Shown here in pieces: positions 3,143 through 51,777 of a stretch of DNA of 64,000 nucleotides. Where the stretch lies: positions 6,686 through 70,685 of the IMG/VR virus record IMGVR_UViG_3300027111_000206. The stretch is one strand, 5' to 3'. Numbering within the stretch: the first letter of the stretch is position 1; each line of letters begins with the position of its first letter. Under the pieces are notes generated by a model, which made no database searches, was not told the DNA's origin, and saw only the letters and a program-made list of their open reading frames with translations. The DNA is from a virus. A program made the translations under genes and the position numbers.

Positions 3143-3182
3143 CGAAGTTCATGTTGAATGCGTTGTTGGCGGAGCGCTGCGA
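3081..3182 (-). ncRNA. DGR template repeat (TR), 102 nt
   Basis: Minus strand TCG CAG CGC TCC GCC AAC AAC GCA TTC AAC ATG AAC TTC GAT GAT GGC AAT CAG AAC AAC AAC GAC AAG GAC GAC GAG CTC CGC GTC CGC CCC GTC CGC AGA; 30 adenines; aligns ungapped to three VRs. Confidence 0.97.
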
Positions 3183-3353
3183 CCTATCGTGCTATCTACG
3201 TCGACAAGCCGAAGGCAGCGCCGATCAGCAAGGAAACTGCGCGAGACCTACACGGACGCTTTAGACCGGCGGTATCTCTTGTGCGCATGGCGGTGGCCCG
3301 AAGGCCAGCGGCACGACCAGATTCAATTCGCACAGACCTGAAAGCCGTAACTC

Positions 3354-3710
3354 TCAGGTAGCGGGCGCGGTTGGGGTGGAGCGTTTCCAGGCATTCGCCT
3401 GTTTGCCAATTGAGGTGGTGACCTCGATAGCCTTGGCATGCTGCGGGACGCTGATGAATCGGCTTTCCTTGAACAGCCGCATTAGGAACTCGATGACCTG
3501 GACCTTCTCAACCAGCGAGGTCAGGTGTGGATGTTTGTCCCGGGTCGAGTTGGCCCGGGCAATCAACATCAGCACGTCGATGCACTCATCAATCACCCGC
3601 TTGCCAAGCGACTGCTTCAGGTCGCGGGGAATGTTTCGGGTAAGGTTGGTGGACATATGAAGCAGACCCATGGCTGCGGCATAGATCGAAAGATCGGTGT
3701 GCATTCCCAT
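3354..3710 (-). CDS. avd: DGR accessory variability determinant (Avd-like four-helix bundle)
   Basis: 118 aa, basic, helical, IPRDLKQSLG ... IGKQANAWKR pattern; lies between target gene and TR/RT. Confidence 0.88.
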   Translation of the reverse strand: MGMHTDLSIYAAAMGLLHMSTNLTRNIPRDLKQSLGKRVIDECIDVLMLIARANSTRDKHPHLTSLVEKVQVIEFLMRLFKESRFISVPQHAKAIEVTTSIGKQANAWKRSTPTAPAT

Positions 3711-19746: not shown

Positions 19747-19973
19747 GCAGGCGTGACTGGTACGACCGTCGAACGGATAAGCGTGTGGCTCTCCAAATCG
19801 CCGAAGAGCAGGGGATTGTCGCCGACAGCTCGGAACTGCGCGCATCCCTGGTCGCCAAGATTCACTCTGGAGAAATGACCATTGAGCAGGTGCAGGCCGA
19901 ACTGCGGAAGGTGAAGCGCGAGGCCAAGAAAAATGGCCTGAAGACGCGCGACCAGATATGGAGGTCCGCATGA
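19743..19973 (+). CDS. Hypothetical protein (MSRRDWYDRR...)
   Basis: ATGA-coupled on both sides. Confidence 0.6.
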   Translation: MSRRDWYDRRTDKRVALQIAEEQGIVADSSELRASLVAKIHSGEMTIEQVQAELRKVKREAKKNGLKTRDQIWRSA

Positions 19974-20590
19974 GCCATACAGCCAACAGTCTCACGGCCA
20001 AGCAGCCACGCCCAAAGAAATGCGCGGTCCCAACATGCAGGGCCTCATTCGTCCCTCGGGCCAGCTTCCAGACATGGTGCTCACCGGACTGCGGCGTCGT
20101 CATTGCCCGGGCCAAGCAGGAGAAGAAGCGAAAGGCCCTGGCCCAGGTCGAGCGCCGTGAGATCAAGGTCCGCAAGGAGAAGCTGAAAAGCAGAGCGGAT
20201 CATCTGCGCGAGGCTCAGGCCGCAGTGAACGAGTACGTCCGCCTGCGGGACGCGCACTTGCCGTGCATCAGCTGCGACTCGATGCCGAACGACAACGACC
20301 TCATGACGGGCAGCCGCTGGGACGCGGGGCACTACCGATCCGTCGGTGCCTGTCCTGAGCTGCGATTCGAGCCGCTGAACATCCACCGCCAGTGTGTGAA
20401 GTGCAATCGAAACCTGTCCGGTAACGCGGTCGAGTACCGAATCCGGCTGGTGCAGCGCATCGGCGCCGAAGCCGTGGCATGGCTCGAAGGGCTTCATGAG
20501 CCCCGCAAGTACACCGTCGACGAAATCAAAACCATCAAGGCCGAATACCGGGCAAAGGCCAGAGAATTGAAAAGGGGAGAGGCAGCATGA
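19970..20590 (+). CDS. ninG: NinG/Rap-family recombination endonuclease
   Basis: KKCAVPTC..QTWCSPDC, PCISC, WDAGHYRS, NIHRQCVKCN. Confidence 0.88.
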   Translation: MSHTANSLTAKQPRPKKCAVPTCRASFVPRASFQTWCSPDCGVVIARAKQEKKRKALAQVERREIKVRKEKLKSRADHLREAQAAVNEYVRLRDAHLPCISCDSMPNDNDLMTGSRWDAGHYRSVGACPELRFEPLNIHRQCVKCNRNLSGNAVEYRIRLVQRIGAEAVAWLEGLHEPRKYTVDEIKTIKAEYRAKARELKRGEAA

Positions 20591-21273
20591 AACTGATCAA
20601 CGCACGTCAGGTATGGACCGAGGCACAGCACGAATCGAACGCGTCGATCAGCGCTGTGGCAATCGACAAGGCGGAATCGGCGCCGGTGAAGAAGGGGGCC
20701 CGAATCAGCAAGCGCGAGGCGTCATTTCCTGCGCTTGGCACCGAGAAGGGAGAGGAGGCGGCCCGATTCGCGGTTCCTGGTCAGCGGATCAGCATCAGCG
20801 AGACGCGCCGCACACCGGTAGGTCGGTCCACCGCCCGCGCCGCGCACCTGGCAACCATTGGCAAGGTGCTCCGGGCAATCGACACGTTGCCTTTCCAGGA
20901 GCAACAGTTCGGGCATTACCTGTACCACCCATGCATGACCCTGGTTCATGTTCTCAACGCCGAGAAGCTGATCTGGGGCAGCGTGGATTTCTCCGGCCTC
21001 ACCGAAGCCAAGGAAGCGAAGGTGCATTGCCTTCTGACCTTGGCTCTACAGTCCTACAAGGTCGAGGCGCACAACGGGGCACCTTGGGGGCCGGCTCGTA
21101 TCGCCGAGGGCATGTTCAAGCTCTACGGGGTTCACATCGAGCCCAAGGTATGGGATCGGGACTGGAAAGAAGCGTGGAATTTCCTGCGCGAAGCCATTGA
21201 GGAAGTGGATATTCGTGTGCAGCAGCCGGTGTGGCAGGTGATTCACGAAGAAAAAGAAGAGTGTGCGGCATAA
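20587..21273 (+). CDS. Late antiterminator (Q-like)
   Basis: Last early-right gene, immediately followed by a pR'-like promoter and terminator. Confidence 0.65.
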   Translation: MKLINARQVWTEAQHESNASISAVAIDKAESAPVKKGARISKREASFPALGTEKGEEAARFAVPGQRISISETRRTPVGRSTARAAHLATIGKVLRAIDTLPFQEQQFGHYLYHPCMTLVHVLNAEKLIWGSVDFSGLTEAKEAKVHCLLTLALQSYKVEAHNGAPWGPARIAEGMFKLYGVHIEPKVWDRDWKEAWNFLREAIEEVDIRVQQPVWQVIHEEKEECAA

Positions 21274-21278
21274 AAGTG

Positions 21279-21307
21279 TTGTCATGTTGGGGTTTTTGAG
21301 GTACTTT
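21279..21307 (+). promoter_or_regulatory. Late promoter (pR'-like)
   Basis: TTGTCA-17 nt-TACTTT. Confidence 0.75.
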
Positions 21308-21349
21308 TCCCATAGTGCACAAGTAACGCGAAACGCACACGAAACCCTG

Positions 21350-21374
21350 AACCCGGCCAAGCGCCGGGTTTTTT
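21350..21374 (+). terminator. Intrinsic terminator (tR'-like)
   Basis: AACCCGGC-CAAGC-GCCGGGTT then T run. Confidence 0.85.
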
Positions 21375-21440
21375 ATTGCCCAAATGCAGGCGAAAGACCG
21401 GAAAGACCCTCCTGCCAAATCGACGTTCGAGGTTCTACCG

Positions 21441-21680
21441 ATGACCCACATCACCCGCTGCAAAATGACTCTCCGCTCCAAAGGGCCTGTTCAGGGCTCG
21501 ACGGAATCACTGACGCGCCTGCACTTCGGTGCGGTGTGGTCGGCCAATCCAGCGGAAGAGGATGCGATCTACGGCAAGTACACCCCGTACGGCGAATACG
21601 TCGTGAATGTGGCTGCCGACCGGGCCGAGCATTTCGAGGAAGGGAAGGACTACTACTTCGATATCTCGCCGGCTTTCTGA
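21441..21680 (+). CDS. Hypothetical protein (MTHITRCKMTL...)
   Basis: GAGG RBS; EDAIYGKYTPYG..V ... FEEGKDYYFDISPA. Confidence 0.7.
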   Translation: MTHITRCKMTLRSKGPVQGSTESLTRLHFGAVWSANPAEEDAIYGKYTPYGEYVVNVAADRAEHFEEGKDYYFDISPAF

Positions 21681-21689
21681 TTCACCTGT

Positions 21690-21880
21690 AGCCAGGACAG
21701 CCTTCGGGAAGACCTGGACGTCGATAGCCGGTAGTGCGGCGTACGGAAACAACACCGGCAGCCCGCGCACCCTGACCAACCATCTGACGCAGGGTGGCGC
21801 GAGACCTGAGCGGCGAGATCGATGCATAGGGGCGTCGACGCCGTGATAGCCTTTGGCGGACGGAGGGGAAAGACCCTCAC
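21690..21880 (+). ncRNA. Putative structured ncRNA (unassigned)
   Basis: Multiple stems with UUCG and GAAA loops and a long-range CGTCGAT/ATCGATG pairing; no credible ORF. Confidence 0.45.
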
Positions 21881-21885
21881 ATCAT

Positions 21886-22032
21886 GCGGATGAATGCGCA
21901 GGCTGATGCGCGAGGAAGCTACACGGGTTTGCCGGTGAAATTCCGGTGCTCCTACAGGGTTTGCGACCAGCGTTGCCGGTTCGAGTCCGGACGGAACCCT
22001 GTATGCCGGTATCAGCACCGGCCATCCGCACC
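21886..22032 (+). ncRNA. tRNA-shaped structured RNA with complementary D-like/T-like loops (unassigned)
   Basis: GCGGATG/CATCCGC-ACC acceptor, GCGC D-like arm, GCCGG/CCGGC T-like arm; loops GCTGAT and ATCAGC are complementary. Confidence 0.55.
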
Positions 22033-22035
22033 TAT

Positions 22036-22458
22036 TCAGGCCGCTTCGACCGAAACCGAAAGACGTTTGCCGAGCGCGGCCAATGCATTCTCCAGGGCTT
22101 CCATCTTCGATGTGTGAAGGAAGTCCACCAGGCGATCGCCTTGGGTCTGAGCAATACCCAGCAGCCGGCACAGGTCAGCCTTGCGCATATCCCGCGCGAT
22201 GAGTTCGTTCCACAGAGCAATCTTCGCCACTGTCACCGCTGGCAGGTGAACGACATGCTCGCCTTCCTGGGAAGCGGATGCGGCTGGAATCGCCCGGCGC
22301 TGATCGACATACAGCGACAGAGTGGTCTCGATAGCGTCCATAGCCTCACGGATCGCGTGCTCGACGTCATCGCCAAAGCTGTTCAGCTCTGGCAGGTCCC
22401 GGCAGAACACAGCCACACCGGTGGCGTCCTGTTCAAATCGAATTGCAAAGTCGTACAT
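22036..22458 (-). CDS. hicB: HicB antitoxin
   Basis: VFCRDLPELNSFGDD.E.A...A.DA N-terminal domain plus C-terminal HTH. Confidence 0.9.
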   Translation of the reverse strand: MYDFAIRFEQDATGVAVFCRDLPELNSFGDDVEHAIREAMDAIETTLSLYVDQRRAIPAASASQEGEHVVHLPAVTVAKIALWNELIARDMRKADLCRLLGIAQTQGDRLVDFLHTSKMEALENALAALGKRLSVSVEAA

Positions 22459-22510
22459 GGGTCACTCCTTGGAGGTGATCGTTCAGTTTCCAGAATGGCG
22501 AAGGGGGCCC

Positions 22511-22693
22511 TTAGAGCCCCAGTTGTTTAATGATCGCCTTGCGGGTCGGTTCCGGCATTTCCTTGGATCCGTGGTCCGCGAAGGTTGTCTTGTTGCCGTT
22601 TGGGGCGGTGACTTTGAAGTGGCTTCCTTTGCCTGCTTCGAAGGTCACCCCTTGGGCCTTCAACCATCGTCTGAACTCGCTGAACTTCATCAC
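22511..22693 (-). CDS. hicA: HicA toxin
   Basis: MKFSEFRRWLKAQG..FEAGKGSHFKV; KAIIKQLGL. Confidence 0.92.
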   Translation of the reverse strand: MMKFSEFRRWLKAQGVTFEAGKGSHFKVTAPNGNKTTFADHGSKEMPEPTRKAIIKQLGL

Positions 22694-22720
22694 CTCGCCT
22701 CGTTGTTTGGATGAGACCAG

Positions 22721-22761
22721 TATACAACAGATTTGTGGTAATACAACAGTTCTGTTGTATT
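22721..22761 (-). promoter_or_regulatory. hicAB promoter with palindromic operators
   Basis: AATACAACAG-TT-CTGTTGTATT perfect palindrome (22740-61) plus an imperfect copy (22721-40) overlapping TTGTAT/TATACT. Confidence 0.7.
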
Positions 22762-22939
22762 TGGCTGTTACCTATTCAGGGCCTCGACATTGATCGAGGC
22801 GTGTTCGTTTTCGGCCCCGCCACACCCATCGCCCTGAGCTGAGAGTGCTGCTGGAGCTGACCTATTCGCCGCTGCTCCCCAGCGTTTGGCCGCTCACACC
22901 GGCCCTTTTCTTCAATCATGCACAGCCGGAGTCGAGCGC

Positions 22940-33730: not shown

Positions 33731-33792
33731 CCGGCGCCGCCCGTGTTCTGTACGAGCCGGGGCCATCCGAAGCAGATCTGGCGGCTTTCGGC

Positions 33793-34041
33793 ATGACCCT
33801 GGCGGATATCCCGCCCGTTGAGTACGACGTCTGGCCGGACAACTGGTCCGCGTTCCTACTCTTCGAGGCCATGTCCACCCAGTGGCGCACCGGCATGGGC
33901 GGGGCCTCTGGCCTGGATTATAACGCCCTCCCGCCTGTCGCCAGCATGCTGGGCATGAAGCGGCGCGAACTCACACAAGCCTTCCACGACATCCGCGTCA
34001 TGGAAGCAGAAGCCATGCTCGTGATGAGCGAATCGAAATAA
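33793..34041 (+). CDS. Tail chaperone gpT-like (frameshift extension)
   Basis: TQWRTGMGGASGLDYNAL; in the -1 frame of gpG. Confidence 0.78.
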   Translation: MTLADIPPVEYDVWPDNWSAFLLFEAMSTQWRTGMGGASGLDYNALPPVASMLGMKRRELTQAFHDIRVMEAEAMLVMSESK

Positions 34042-34051
34042 CGGAGCCCGC

Positions 34052-37018
34052 ATGACTTCTATTGCTGAACTCGGCATCAAGGTCGACTCGACCGATGCTG
34101 CGCAGGCGAGCTCCGACCTCGACAAGCTGACCGCGGCGGGTGGCCGCGCCGAGAAAGCTGCCGAGGGAGTTTCCCGGAGCGCTGACAAGGCTTCGGTATC
34201 GATCAAGAAGCAGAAGGACGAGCTTTCGGATCTGCTCGGCGAGATCGACCCGACCGTAAAGGCCCTGGGTCGGCTGGATGAGCTCGAAAGCAAGCTGGCA
34301 AAGCAGAAGAAGCTAGGCGCGCTGGATGCTTCGACCTTCAGCGAATACCAGGCGAAGATCGACCAGTCTCGGACGAACCTTGGCCGCTTCGATGACTCCC
34401 TGACCCGCACAGGCAACACCGCCAAGCAGACCGCTGCTGCGCTGCGTGGGGTGCCCGCGCAGTTCACTGACATCGCCGTATCGCTGCAGGGCGGCCAGAG
34501 CCCACTGACGGTTTTGCTCCAACAGGGCGGTCAGCTCAAGGATATGTTCGGCGGCATCGGACCGGCAGCAAAGGCCCTGGGCGGTTATGTGCTCGGCCTG
34601 GTCAATCCGTTCACCGTCGCGGCGGCAGCGGCAGCGGCTCTGGGGCTGGCCTATTACAAGGGCAGCCAGGAGGCGGACGAATTCAACAAGTCGCTGATCC
34701 TGACCGGCAATTACGCAGGGACAACGGCTGGCGGCCTTGCCTCTCTGGCTAAGCAAGTCAGCTCGACTGTGGGCACGACAGGCGCAGCGGCGGCGGTTCT
34801 CGCTCAACTGGCGGGCAGTGGCAACATCGCAGCCTACAGCTTCGAGGAGATCACCAAGGCCGCCCTGACCATGGAGGAGGCCACGGGCAAAGCTGTCGAG
34901 GAGACGGTTGCCCAGTTCGCCTCGATCGCCAAGGAGCCTGTGGCCGCCTCGATAAAGCTCAACGAGCAGTATCACTACCTGACGGCCTCGGTCTACGAGC
35001 AGATCGTTGCCCTGGAGAAGCAGGGTGAGCAGGCGGCCGCTGTCAGGCTGGCCACCGATGCGTTCGCTGATGCTATCCAATCGCGCGGGGATCAAATCAC
35101 CCAGCGCCTGGGACTGATCGAAGGCGCCTGGAACAAGGTCGCCAAGGCCGCCAAGTGGGCTTGGGATTCTGCCTTGGATGTTGGTCGGGAGGCTACCTAC
35201 GAGGAAAAGCTGGCCGATCTGGAGCTTCAGGCTCAGAACGCAGCGCGCCTCGGGGCCGGCCCGCGAGGTGGCGGTGGTCGCGGCGTGGCCCAGATAGAGG
35301 CTGATCGAGCCTCGCTGATGCTGGAGGAGCAAGAGCGCCGCAATCGCGCTCAGGCCAAGCAGCTCGACCAGCAGCGCCAGGAAGCGGCTGTCAGCGGCAT
35401 GCAGCTTATCGCTCGCGAGGCAGATTTAGCGCAGACCCAGGTACAAAAGCTTGAGAAAAAGCTCGCTGACCTGGACAAAGCCCGCCAGAAGAACATCGCC
35501 AACAACACGTACTCACCTGATCTACAGAAGCAGTACGAGACGGCAGTCGCAGGCGTCAACAAGCAGATTGCGGATGCCCAGAAGAAAGCTGCTGGCCCGG
35601 CTGGCGCGCTGAATCTGACCGAGTTCAACGACTCGAAGAACCAGCTCTCGGCGATCCTCGGCGAGTACAAAAACGCCCAGAAGGAGCTGGAGGCAGCGCA
35701 GAAGGCCGGCCTGGTCACCCAGGAAGATTACCTGCTCAAACGACAGGCACTGATCGGCAACGAGCGCGACGAGGTCACGGCTGCCTATGAGGCCGAGATC
35801 GCAGCGCTTGAAGCATCCAAGGGCAAGGCCAGCACATCGGCGGCCCAGCGGATCCAGCTGGACCAGAAGATCGCCGACGCCCGGGCCAACATGGTCAAGG
35901 CGCAGAAGGAGGCCGACAGCGAACTCGAAGTAATCGCCACCAACGAGCAGGGACGGCTCGCCAAGCAGGCTCAGGCCATCAAGTCCTACACCGATGCCCT
36001 GGACCAGCAGAACGTCGTGCTGCGGCGTGCTGGGAGTCGTGCAGCTGATGGCGTCGGCAGGGGCGACCGCGAAAACGCAATCAACGGCGAACTGAACGGT
36101 ATTGCCGACCGGGCCAACCAGCAACGTCTGGATTTGGCCCGGGACAAGGCCGACGCCTCGCGCAACATGAGCGCCGAGGAATACCAGGCCAAGCTGGCCG
36201 CCATCAACAGAAGCGAGAAGGACCTGAGCGCGACAGTGCTCAGCAACTACGAGCAGATGTCTGAGGCGCAAAGCGACTGGCGCAAGGGTGCCACCTCGGC
36301 CTTCAGCAACTACCTGGAAAGCGCGCGCAACATCGCCGGTCAGACGCGAGACCTGTTTTCCAACGCGTTCAGCTCCATGGAGGACTCGGTCGTTAACTTC
36401 GCCATCACTGGGAAGGGTTCGTTCGGGGATTTCACGAAATCCGTGCTGGCCGATATGGCGCGAATCGCGACAAGGACTGCGGCGTCCGAAGGGCTCAGTG
36501 CTTTGTTCGGCCTGGCAGCATCCGCTGCTGGTTCGTACTTTGGTGGTGCGTCATCCGCCGGCTCAACCCAGGCAGGGTACTCCGGCGACCTATCGGGCTT
36601 CACCCCGGGCAGCATTCAGGCCAAAGGCGGCGCTTGGTCGGGTGGTGTGCAGATGTTCGCCAACGGCGCCGCCTTTGCCAACTCCATCGTCAGCAAGCCG
36701 ACAGCGTTCGGCATGGCCGGCGGCGGGATTGGGGTAATGGGCGAGGCAGGGGAGGAGGCGATTATGCCGCTGACCCGCACGGCCGGCGGCCAATTGGGCG
36801 TGAGGGCAATCACTGGAGGTGGCTCTGGCACCGCGATCAGCATCAACGCGCCTGTGACCGTTGTCACCCAAGATCGGAGCTCAGAAGGGATGCAGATCGA
36901 CCAGCAGGCCTTGTCGAAGAGCCTTCAGTCGCAAATGCAGGTTGTGGCGGAAAAAGCAGTCGCTGATTCCTGGCGCGCTGGCGGTACCAGCTTCCGCAAC
37001 GTTAATGGGAGGGCCTGA
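34052..37018 (+). CDS. Tape measure protein
   Basis: 988 aa, Ala-rich; LLQQGGQLKDMFGG lambda-H-like segment. Confidence 0.93.
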   Translation: MTSIAELGIKVDSTDAAQASSDLDKLTAAGGRAEKAAEGVSRSADKASVSIKKQKDELSDLLGEIDPTVKALGRLDELESKLAKQKKLGALDASTFSEYQAKIDQSRTNLGRFDDSLTRTGNTAKQTAAALRGVPAQFTDIAVSLQGGQSPLTVLLQQGGQLKDMFGGIGPAAKALGGYVLGLVNPFTVAAAAAAALGLAYYKGSQEADEFNKSLILTGNYAGTTAGGLASLAKQVSSTVGTTGAAAAVLAQLAGSGNIAAYSFEEITKAALTMEEATGKAVEETVAQFASIAKEPVAASIKLNEQYHYLTASVYEQIVALEKQGEQAAAVRLATDAFADAIQSRGDQITQRLGLIEGAWNKVAKAAKWAWDSALDVGREATYEEKLADLELQAQNAARLGAGPRGGGGRGVAQIEADRASLMLEEQERRNRAQAKQLDQQRQEAAVSGMQLIAREADLAQTQVQKLEKKLADLDKARQKNIANNTYSPDLQKQYETAVAGVNKQIADAQKKAAGPAGALNLTEFNDSKNQLSAILGEYKNAQKELEAAQKAGLVTQEDYLLKRQALIGNERDEVTAAYEAEIAALEASKGKASTSAAQRIQLDQKIADARANMVKAQKEADSELEVIATNEQGRLAKQAQAIKSYTDALDQQNVVLRRAGSRAADGVGRGDRENAINGELNGIADRANQQRLDLARDKADASRNMSAEEYQAKLAAINRSEKDLSATVLSNYEQMSEAQSDWRKGATSAFSNYLESARNIAGQTRDLFSNAFSSMEDSVVNFAITGKGSFGDFTKSVLADMARIATRTAASEGLSALFGLAASAAGSYFGGASSAGSTQAGYSGDLSGFTPGSIQAKGGAWSGGVQMFANGAAFANSIVSKPTAFGMAGGGIGVMGEAGEEAIMPLTRTAGGQLGVRAITGGGSGTAISINAPVTVVTQDRSSEGMQIDQQALSKSLQSQMQVVAEKAVADSWRAGGTSFRNVNGRA

Positions 37019-38115: not shown

Positions 38116-38210
38116 TAGAATGATCAAGTGGCTAGGGTAGCTCCCGAAAAGCCGGCCCCTAACCGGTCTGCCACTCCCAGCTGTTAGGGTTCATGCTGTA
38201 GGGGTGTGAA

Positions 38211-51412: not shown

Positions 51413-51461
51413 TCTATGGATCCTTGGAGTTGAGCCACCACACACTCGCGACTAAACGAGG

Positions 51462-51539
51462 GGTGGCAGCTGTACGCAGGTTAGTCGACCGGGGATCCAA
51501 GGAACCGGCGCGCCCGAGGGCGCCCTGCGCACAGCCACC
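51462..51539 (-). ncRNA. C4-type antisense RNA
   Basis: 78-nt GGTGG...CCACC cloverleaf; its single-stranded segments are complementary to paired target boxes upstream and downstream. Confidence 0.8.
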
Positions 51540-51777
51540 ATCAAGTACAGGGATGGGATACCTGACTAATGGAGCAGTGAGCACCTTGGAGTACCGAGCG
51601 ACTAAACCCGATCACTGATGGGCAGTGACGAGAACTAAAGTACCGATGGGATCCAAGGTGGACGAGCCGGCGGATTCTGGCGTAGTTGTAGGCCGAGGCG
51701 CAAGGCGATGTAGCCTGGTGCCGCGCATTTGAAGGACGGGGGCGGAGCCTTTTCCTAAGGGTATGTAGGGCGATTCC

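Follow-up and report, generated by a model that had tools for sequence, protein, structure and literature searches.

The question raised by this locus is whether a segment with the outline of a tRNA is a real RNA, what kind of RNA it is, and what it could do for the phage that carries it. The segment lies in the window, the 64,000-nt stretch of DNA analyzed here, which is part of a Pseudomonas prophage, and it occupies the position that lambdoid phages use for the late-operon leader (Table 1). A preliminary description, made from the letters alone, had placed a set of helices here, all of which are present at 21886-22032 on the plus strand. As judged by sequence comparison, the segment is a real, conserved, and structured RNA gene, and it is one member of a large family of phage RNAs in which a fixed frame encloses an interchangeable middle.

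Several lines of evidence point to selection on an RNA structure. The single-sequence fold has a z-score of -2.68 on the plus strand and -1.98 on the minus strand. BLAST and pattern scans recovered the element from Pseudomonas phage DVM-2008, 15 IMG/VR contigs, two Pseudomonas genomes, and several metagenome contigs. The 147/148-nt form is represented by 17 distinct variants in five unrelated prophage contexts, and a 103-nt form also exists, without the 44 nt that separate two GCCGGU repeats. A nine-helix model, comprising P1 to P8 and the loop-loop helix, was tested on 11 variants: standard pairs occupy 98.3% of cells, both sides have changed at nine pairs, and none of 500 shuffles equalled the observed pairing and covariation values, while slid controls were 35-44% paired. 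P1, P5, and P8 show clear double changes. P3 and P7 show one each, both from the most diverged variant (L017). Across the wider family P8 covaries as well (GCCAG/CUGGC, CCGAG/CUCGG).

Table 1. Features of the locus and of the 147-nt element (window coordinates)
Feature	Position	Strand	Basis or remark
NinG	19958-20590	+	Window gene order
phrog_3373 protein	20587-21273	+	Window gene order
Intrinsic terminator, strong, 9-bp stem and T-run	21349-21371	+	Inside mechanical ORF 21263-21691
98-aa ORF, phrog_6978	21384-21680	+	Window gene order
Proteo-phage-1 RNA (RF03044)	21686-21763	+	76.8 bits against a gathering score of 42; opens the non-coding leader
tRNA-shaped element, 147 nt	21886-22032	+	Helices, covariation
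Leader bases A-2 U-1	21884-21885	+	Directly 5' of P1
P1 5' strand, acceptor-like, 7 bp, GCGGATG	21886-21892	+	Pairs with 22023-22029
Junction AAU, P1 to P2	21893-21895	+	AAU in 115/120 frames
P2, D-like hairpin, GCGC-AGGCTGAT-GCGC (family GCGC-AGGCUGAU-GCGC)	21896-21911	+	Stem varies by G-U wobbles only
Kissing segment of P2 loop, GCUGAU	21902-21907	+	Pairs with AUCAGC, 22011-22016
Cargo arm 1	21913-21953	+	P3 around a 12-nt strand and P4
P3	21913-21919 with 21948-21953, one bulged A	+	A-U to C-G double change in L017
P4, CCGG-UGAAAUU-CCGG	21932-21946	+	Stem invariant; loop variants UGAGAUU, CUAAAUU
Cargo arm 2	21954-22002	+	P5 around P6 and T-arm P7
P5, 9-10 bp	21953/54-21962 with 21994-22002/03	+	Double changes at two pairs, with wobble intermediates
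P6 hairpin	21964-21975	+	Stem invariant; loop CAGC, CAAC, CUUA, AAAG
P7, canonical T-arm, CCGG-UUCGAGU-CCGG	21976-21990	+	C-G to U-A in L017 and L168; T-loop invariant
P8, T-like hairpin, GCCGG-TATCAGCA-CCGGC (RNA loop UAUCAGCA)	22005-22022	+	Abuts P1 3' strand
P1 3' strand, CATCCGC	22023-22029	+	Pairs with 21886-21892
Tail A73-C74-C75	22030-22032	+	ACC in 17/17 variants of the 147-nt subfamily
Trailer UAUUCAGG, family consensus Y-A-W-U-C	22033-22040	+	Kept in unrelated contexts and in element-less phiAH14a
hicB/hicA	22036-22693	-	Opposite strand to the element
Intrinsic terminator assigned to the element	22781-22800	+	Terminator scan
Two holins	from 22886	+	Window gene order

Competing folds fared poorly against the same changes. 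The alternatives offered by RNAalifold (a 31-35/41-45 helix and a shifted T-arm) are broken by the substitutions in L017, whereas P3 and P7 keep all their pairs, and a switch between two GGGUUUG repeats was rejected since only the second repeat agrees with those substitutions. A coding reading of the segment, based on ORFs 21884-22117(+) and 21882-22031(-), is contradicted by the compensatory stem changes, by the form with the 44-nt deletion, and by exchanges of the whole middle. In contigs from soil RNA libraries, which may contain DNA, positions 1-26 and 126-147 are kept and the remainder consists of 94 or 142 other letters.

The arm that would carry an anticodon in a tRNA had been described as an insert of about 90 nt with two T-loop hairpins. 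The insert is indeed there, 93 nt long and folded into two arms (P3/P4 and P5/P6/P7) that separate the D-like from the T-like hairpin, but the earlier list missed a small extra hairpin within it, GCGAC-CAGC-GUUGC. Of the two loops, TTCGAGT is a canonical and invariant T-loop, whereas TGAAATT fits only the generic pattern U-N-N-R-A, which most variants retain, and is replaced by CUAAAUU in L168. It is a matter of speculation that the UGAAAUU hairpin and the invariant T-loop may dock on one another or on the elbow.

The most unusual proposal concerned the elbow itself, which was thought to consist of Watson-Crick pairs between two hairpin loops (GCTGAT/ATCAGC). Our first collection had the P2 loop segment (L2) fixed and was blind to covariation; therefore, we carried out four scans with a non-consensus central L2 base and read the P8 loop segment (L8) in a fixed register. 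When L2 is GCCGAU, L8 is AUCGGC, CUCGGC, or GACGGC in five of six unique sequences, and the compensating G in L8 appears just once among more than 100 sequences with the usual L2, in a doubtful 3' frame pick. L2 GUUGAU either pairs with L8 AUCAAC or UUCAAC or retains a G-U wobble, and DVM-2008 combines L2 GAUGAU with L8 AUCAUU. Several frames have uncompensated single mismatches (GCUGUU, GCUUAU, GCAGAU, GAUGAU). The covarying loop-loop pairs are 18-130 and 19-129, and the remaining four are nearly invariant. Loop-loop pairing is thus supported by compensatory pairs in relatives, in agreement with the original proposal. The P2 loop is nearly invariant as a whole, and the high sequence conservation in both loops suggests selection beyond pairing. 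Such near-invariance also suggests a sequence-specific partner, which a plain scaffold model does not need.

The loops belong to a frame that reaches well beyond the window. Its order is a 7-nt strand, AAU, GCGC-AGGCUGAU-GCGC, a middle, GCCGG-(A)GAUCAGCA-CCGGC, and the complementary 7-nt strand, and the window has every defining element of this proposed kissing-elbow frame. Members amount to at least 130 distinct sequences in phages of Pseudomonas, Escherichia, Klebsiella, and others, and a loose pattern for the D-like hairpin by itself returned more than 100 loci, most of them with the same frame. The collection was made without requiring a CC tail, since that condition inflated the tRNA-like picture. 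In 114 curated unique frames, P1 is 94-100% paired at each position, and all four Watson-Crick pair types are seen at positions 1-6. The middles measure 26-162 nt and adopt folds unrelated to one another. One homologous Pseudomonas locus keeps identical flanks and P1 while its middle varies: 26 nt in L023/L065, 93 nt in L003, and 162 nt in L071.

The frame also extends to enterobacteria. A 136-base query around the element of L133, of the enterobacterial type, matched 164 phage records, including HK620, HK633, Stx-converting phages, and many Klebsiella phages, 158-kb Ackermannviridae among them, as well as 1021 of 5426 complete E. coli genomes. At least 80% of the query is covered in just 10 phage records and 97 genomes; since so few matches reach that coverage, many of them may reflect the conserved frame alone. 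Among the matches listed, none has an RNA annotation under it. The frame is absent from E. coli K-12 MG1655. In HK620, the element is flanked by the annotated qut site and by tQ, the late terminator, and Rfam has nothing for it.

In the five contexts in which the element occurs, its orientation is always that of the flanking genes. It follows Proteo-phage-1 in the late leader (context A: window, L017, L007/L016), a Q-like antiterminator gene and a first terminator (context B: L168), or an integrase/phrog_5085/phrog_3412 operon and its terminator (context C); it also lies between head-tail adaptor and head-closure genes (context D) and in a tailocin cluster (context E: DVM-2008). The Proteo-phage-1 RNA is upstream in context A only and missing in the other four. 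Conversely, phiAH14a lacks the element but retains Proteo-phage-1 together with the linker, the GCACCUAUUCAGGG motif, and the terminator. The suggestion that the element is an obligatory part of one RNA with positions 21690-21880 is therefore not borne out. Within the window, the Proteo-phage-1 match is an upstream neighbor with zero overlap with 21886-22032. The terminator at 21349-21371 is a candidate for the first terminator of the late leader, the Q-sensitive one, and the real gene in this part is probably the 98-aa ORF rather than the mechanical one. We found no sigma-70-like promoter upstream of the element in the window or in L013; the six bases just upstream resemble a -10 box, but the preference for A-2 and U-1 accounts better for this look.

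The adjacent toxin-antitoxin genes, whose tail-to-tail position had suggested a link to the RNA, have no such role, as relatives occur without hicAB. The stem of the terminator at 22781-22800 is identical in sequence to the terminator stems of DVM-2008 and phiAH14a, where the terminator lies 8-12 nt downstream of the element or its trailer. Because the relatives' terminator starts so close to the element and that of the window does not, hicAB is best read as an insertion and not as a partner of the RNA: on this comparison, a minus-strand moron (22036-22780) split the trailer (...ACCTATTCAGG) from the element's own terminator.

Other structured sequences accompany the frame in several genomes. 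Hairpins with GRAAGA(C) loops occur in leaders with or near a frame (window 21686-21880; L175, L185, L187, L188, L192), and in such leaders a (G)GCACCYAUUC motif directly 3' of a stem recurs; it closes the window element and is retained in element-less phiAH14a. In enterobacterial phages, the frame has a tmRNA-like module on one side and a tRNA or terminator on the other. Upstream of the frame, HK620 (L171 2200-2340) and swi2 (L205 1240-1340) have a tmRNA-like tag template ending in ...ANEEMYLAVA and a stop; in swi2, a promoter is followed by the tag module, a hairpin whose tip resembles a T-arm, the frame, and tRNA-Met. ARAGORN reports a tmRNA in swi2 that overlaps the frame (L205 1408-1782), most likely a false composite that uses the T-arm and acceptor end of the neighboring tRNA-Met. 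In DVM-2008, a small group II intron (L001 1777-2382; RF02001 and RF00029 matches) sits in the tailocin cluster right past the terminator of the element; insertion downstream of terminators is a habit of some bacterial group II introns. Klebsiella phage P01 has about 2.2 kb without annotated genes that contain a frame member (L204; record 33782-35998), with an ncRNA annotated as STnc100 about 500 nt downstream. This stretch is a possible RNA island of a large lytic phage. Finally, a tRNA gene is found within 500 nt in 14 of 114 frames, on the same strand in all.

Is the element a known RNA? In agreement with the earlier reading of a tRNA-shaped but non-decoding molecule outside characterized Rfam families, ARAGORN finds no tRNA or tmRNA gene in the window and no tRNA gene in relatives, and no Rfam 15 family, RF00005 included, matches the element at a cutoff as loose as E<=10. 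Elsewhere in the window, Rfam matches RT-15 RNA (3180-3370, 177 bits), int-alpA RNA (38125-38189), and C4 RNA (51459-51545, 78.5 bits). The likeness to tRNA, especially class II, is nevertheless extensive: a 7-bp stem on a 5-bp hairpin, five helices around one junction, a short junction followed by a 4-bp hairpin with a GG-containing 8-nt loop, an elbow where two loops meet, a 3' A-C-C, the 5' A-U leader of bacterial pre-tRNAs, and, for some members, a place in tRNA gene clusters. The 7+5 bp stack of acceptor and T-stem with a 3' N-C-C is found in all 17 variants of the subfamily. However, the element lacks an anticodon stem with a 7-nt loop (U33, purine 37), having the two-arm insert there instead; short members have ordinary hairpins at this position, of which L023/L065 alone happen to fit the loop pattern. 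No T-loop in the acceptor-stacked arm docks on G18 G19 of the D-loop: the stacked loop is (A)GAUCAGCA, 8-9 nt long and without T-Psi-C, and the only canonical T-loop of the window sits inside the cargo. The elbow consists of six Watson-Crick loop-loop pairs, the junction has 3 nt versus 2 in tRNA, and the length is 147 nt. Neither tmRNA (RF00023) nor its permuted forms match the window element; P1 position 3 is G-C or A-U and not G3-U70, and the weak tmRNA-like matches of HK620 lie upstream of the frame, outside it. The element itself is not a member of Proteo-phage-1 (RF03044).

Among phage RNAs, C4 of P1/P7 (RF01695) and the CI RNA of P4 share with the element a small cloverleaf, a long closing stem, two GC-rich hairpins, a 3' ACC-like tail, and a place within an operon transcript. 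The loops of C4 supply its variable antisense parts, whereas those of the element are constant and mutually paired and the variable part is an extra domain. The C4 model (clan CL00128) gives no match at 21600-22100 at E<=10, though it detects the genuine C4 of the window. The T4 species 1 and 2 RNAs (rnaC, rnaD) have tRNA-like ends and resemble the element in their size of about 120-140 nt, their tRNA-gene neighbors, and their lack of an assigned function; the frame motifs are absent from their sequences, and we saw no kissing hairpins in them. The purine riboswitch aptamer is built on a three-way junction; its L2 and L3 loops kiss through two Watson-Crick pairs, and the junction forms a conserved ligand pocket. 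As in the element, its P1 stacks on one hairpin, with a second alongside and a loop-loop contact, but the element has six loop pairs and a junction that takes unrelated inserts, and it has no Rfam match. Ponchon and Dardel reportedly engineered tRNA scaffolds for recombinant RNA in 2007. These likewise place a structured RNA at the anticodon-arm position for cellular processing and stabilization; they are laboratory designs on a real tRNA body, whereas the element is a natural phage RNA with an elbow of its own. By analogy, then, the element would work most like RNase P-processed phage cloverleaf RNAs (C4, P4 CI) and the engineered tRNA scaffold. The prophage small RNAs AgvB and AsxR (PMC4104026), 51-60 nt in length, conserved toward the 3' end and variable toward the 5' end, do not fit the element. 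The same holds for the Pas sRNAs, on which the texts consulted contain nothing pointing to the element, and in the papers searched on Proteo-phage-1 and on tRNA-like or kissing phage RNAs we found no description of it.

The ends of the element bear on how it might be made. Bacterial RNase P prefers A-2, U-1, G+1, and R73-C74-C75 (PMC4919922), and the same source cites phage C4 RNA as a documented RNase P substrate (Hartmann et al. 1995). All 17 variants have A-2, U-1, and A73-C74-C75, and G+1 is present in all but one (A), although their upstream sequences are unrelated. The window element and these variants show the preferred bases with single-stranded flanks, which makes the RNase P processing envisaged in the preliminary description plausible. 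In 42 frames with a CC tail and an unextended P1, A73 is found in 38, U-1 in 32, and A-2 in 32, followed by a Y-A-W-U-C trailer. The trailer at 22033-22040 may be a 3' processing site. At the same time, the N-CC tail is limited to about 40% of frames, P1 is prolonged into a long helix in 17 of 114, and the ACC of the window overlaps a motif, ACCUAUUC, that also follows other leader hairpins and persists in element-less phiAH14a. Therefore, tRNA-like ends are a trait of a large subfamily that includes the window and not of the frame. Members with an extended P1 do not show the preferred bases with single-stranded flanks and should not be RNase P substrates.

We favor a model, about as apt to be right as wrong, in which the frame is a tRNA-like scaffold by which phages process and stabilize interchangeable RNA cargo. 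The element would be transcribed together with the flanking phage genes; in the window, the RNA would close the late-operon leader, following Proteo-phage-1 and preceding the terminator upstream of the holins. Host tRNA-processing enzymes would then excise it, with RNase P cleaving the U-1/G+1 bond, a step favored by A-2 and by pairing of A73-C74-C75 with the L15 loop, and the 3' end would arise from a cut in the AU-rich trailer followed by trimming to ACC and possibly the addition of an A. Frames share the strand of the tRNA genes and phage genes beside them, an arrangement that would suit joint processing with the former and joint transcription with the latter. The tRNA-like fold would protect the RNA, the frame acting as a natural production and stability scaffold, and the cargo would carry the function in trans by binding or titrating a host or phage factor. 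A broader and clearly more tentative version, possible in our view but more probably wrong than right, sees mobile RNA cassettes shared by phages of many Gram-negative hosts, in which a tRNA-mimicking kissing-elbow frame would hijack host tRNA processing to make and protect a fast-changing set of structured cargo RNAs. In conflicts of phages with their hosts or with one another, these cargos would work in trans as decoys, sponges, or immunity determinants.

The position of the element at the ends of transcription units, just ahead of terminators, would suit a different role. The frame could be a cis-acting processing or stability signal, a tRNA-style punctuation cut by RNase P, E, or III, which would separate an upstream leader RNA, tmRNA-like module, or mRNA from downstream sequence or protect its end, and whose excised middle would be functionless. 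Enterobacterial frames between a tmRNA-like module and a tRNA or terminator are in line with this role, as are frames that tip a long helix, a possible RNase III-type target, and frames adjoining same-strand tRNA genes. Yet a cut site needs no conserved cargo, whereas the cargo helices of the 147-nt form are compensated, its T-loop is invariant, and cargo is swapped as whole folded modules; we consider such a signal unlikely, though it deserves serious weight. Proximity to terminators would also be expected of a cis-acting RNA comparable to put of HK022, which would modify RNA polymerase or a nearby terminator and set late-gene read-through: Pseudomonas members have an intrinsic terminator 8-12 nt further on, and the HK620 element precedes a late terminator. 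This role is highly unlikely, given that fewer than half of frames have a T-run within 70 nt, that the element also occurs between head and neck genes, after an integrase operon, and beside tRNA genes, that 750 nt and hicAB separate element and terminator in the window, and that phiAH14a retains leader and terminator without the element.

The tRNA-like geometry and ends, together with a hypervariable cargo in a fixed frame at moron-type sites of unrelated phages, could instead mark a decoy or sponge for a host factor that recognizes tRNA, be it a defense nuclease, a tRNA-modifying or repair enzyme, or the CCA-adding enzyme, with the varied cargos as the product of an arms race. A true T-arm within the cargo of the window and of some other members would agree with this. 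The specific version put forward at the outset, a decoy for anticodon nucleases, finds no anticodon stem-loop, the target of the known enzymes, to present; different members have unrelated inserts at that position, simple hairpins in the short ones, and no defense or counter-defense gene is consistently adjacent in the contexts examined. We regard a decoy as distinctly improbable. The perfect T-arm could also be taken as the mark of a decayed tRNA gene, an attachment-site remnant, or a module boundary at the DNA level without RNA function, in which case the conserved frame halves around variable DNA could be homology arms, as the cargo swaps at one locus would fit. Compensatory changes in eight of the nine helices counted, loop-loop helix included, are unexplained at the DNA level and contradict such an origin (the short hairpin in cargo arm 2 never varies); moreover, most contexts have no adjacent integrase, and the frame is conserved in phages of different host genera. 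We find a DNA-level origin barely credible. The processing and stability scaffold is our working model, and there is a fair chance that the frame family is a new kind of RNA cassette system.

If the scaffold model is true, these elements would constitute a common class of phage non-coding RNA that has so far gone unannotated: the HK620-type element alone is matched in about one fifth of complete E. coli genomes and in 164 phage records, and related frames are also found in Pseudomonas prophages, a tailocin cluster, and large lytic Klebsiella phages. The frame would be a natural counterpart to the laboratory tRNA scaffold and a rare case of a tRNA elbow rebuilt from six Watson-Crick loop-loop pairs, and as such a clean model for shape recognition by RNase P and other elbow-reading enzymes. 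As a search handle, it could list hundreds of structured cargo RNAs at the classic lambdoid moron site, between Q/pR' and the lysis genes.
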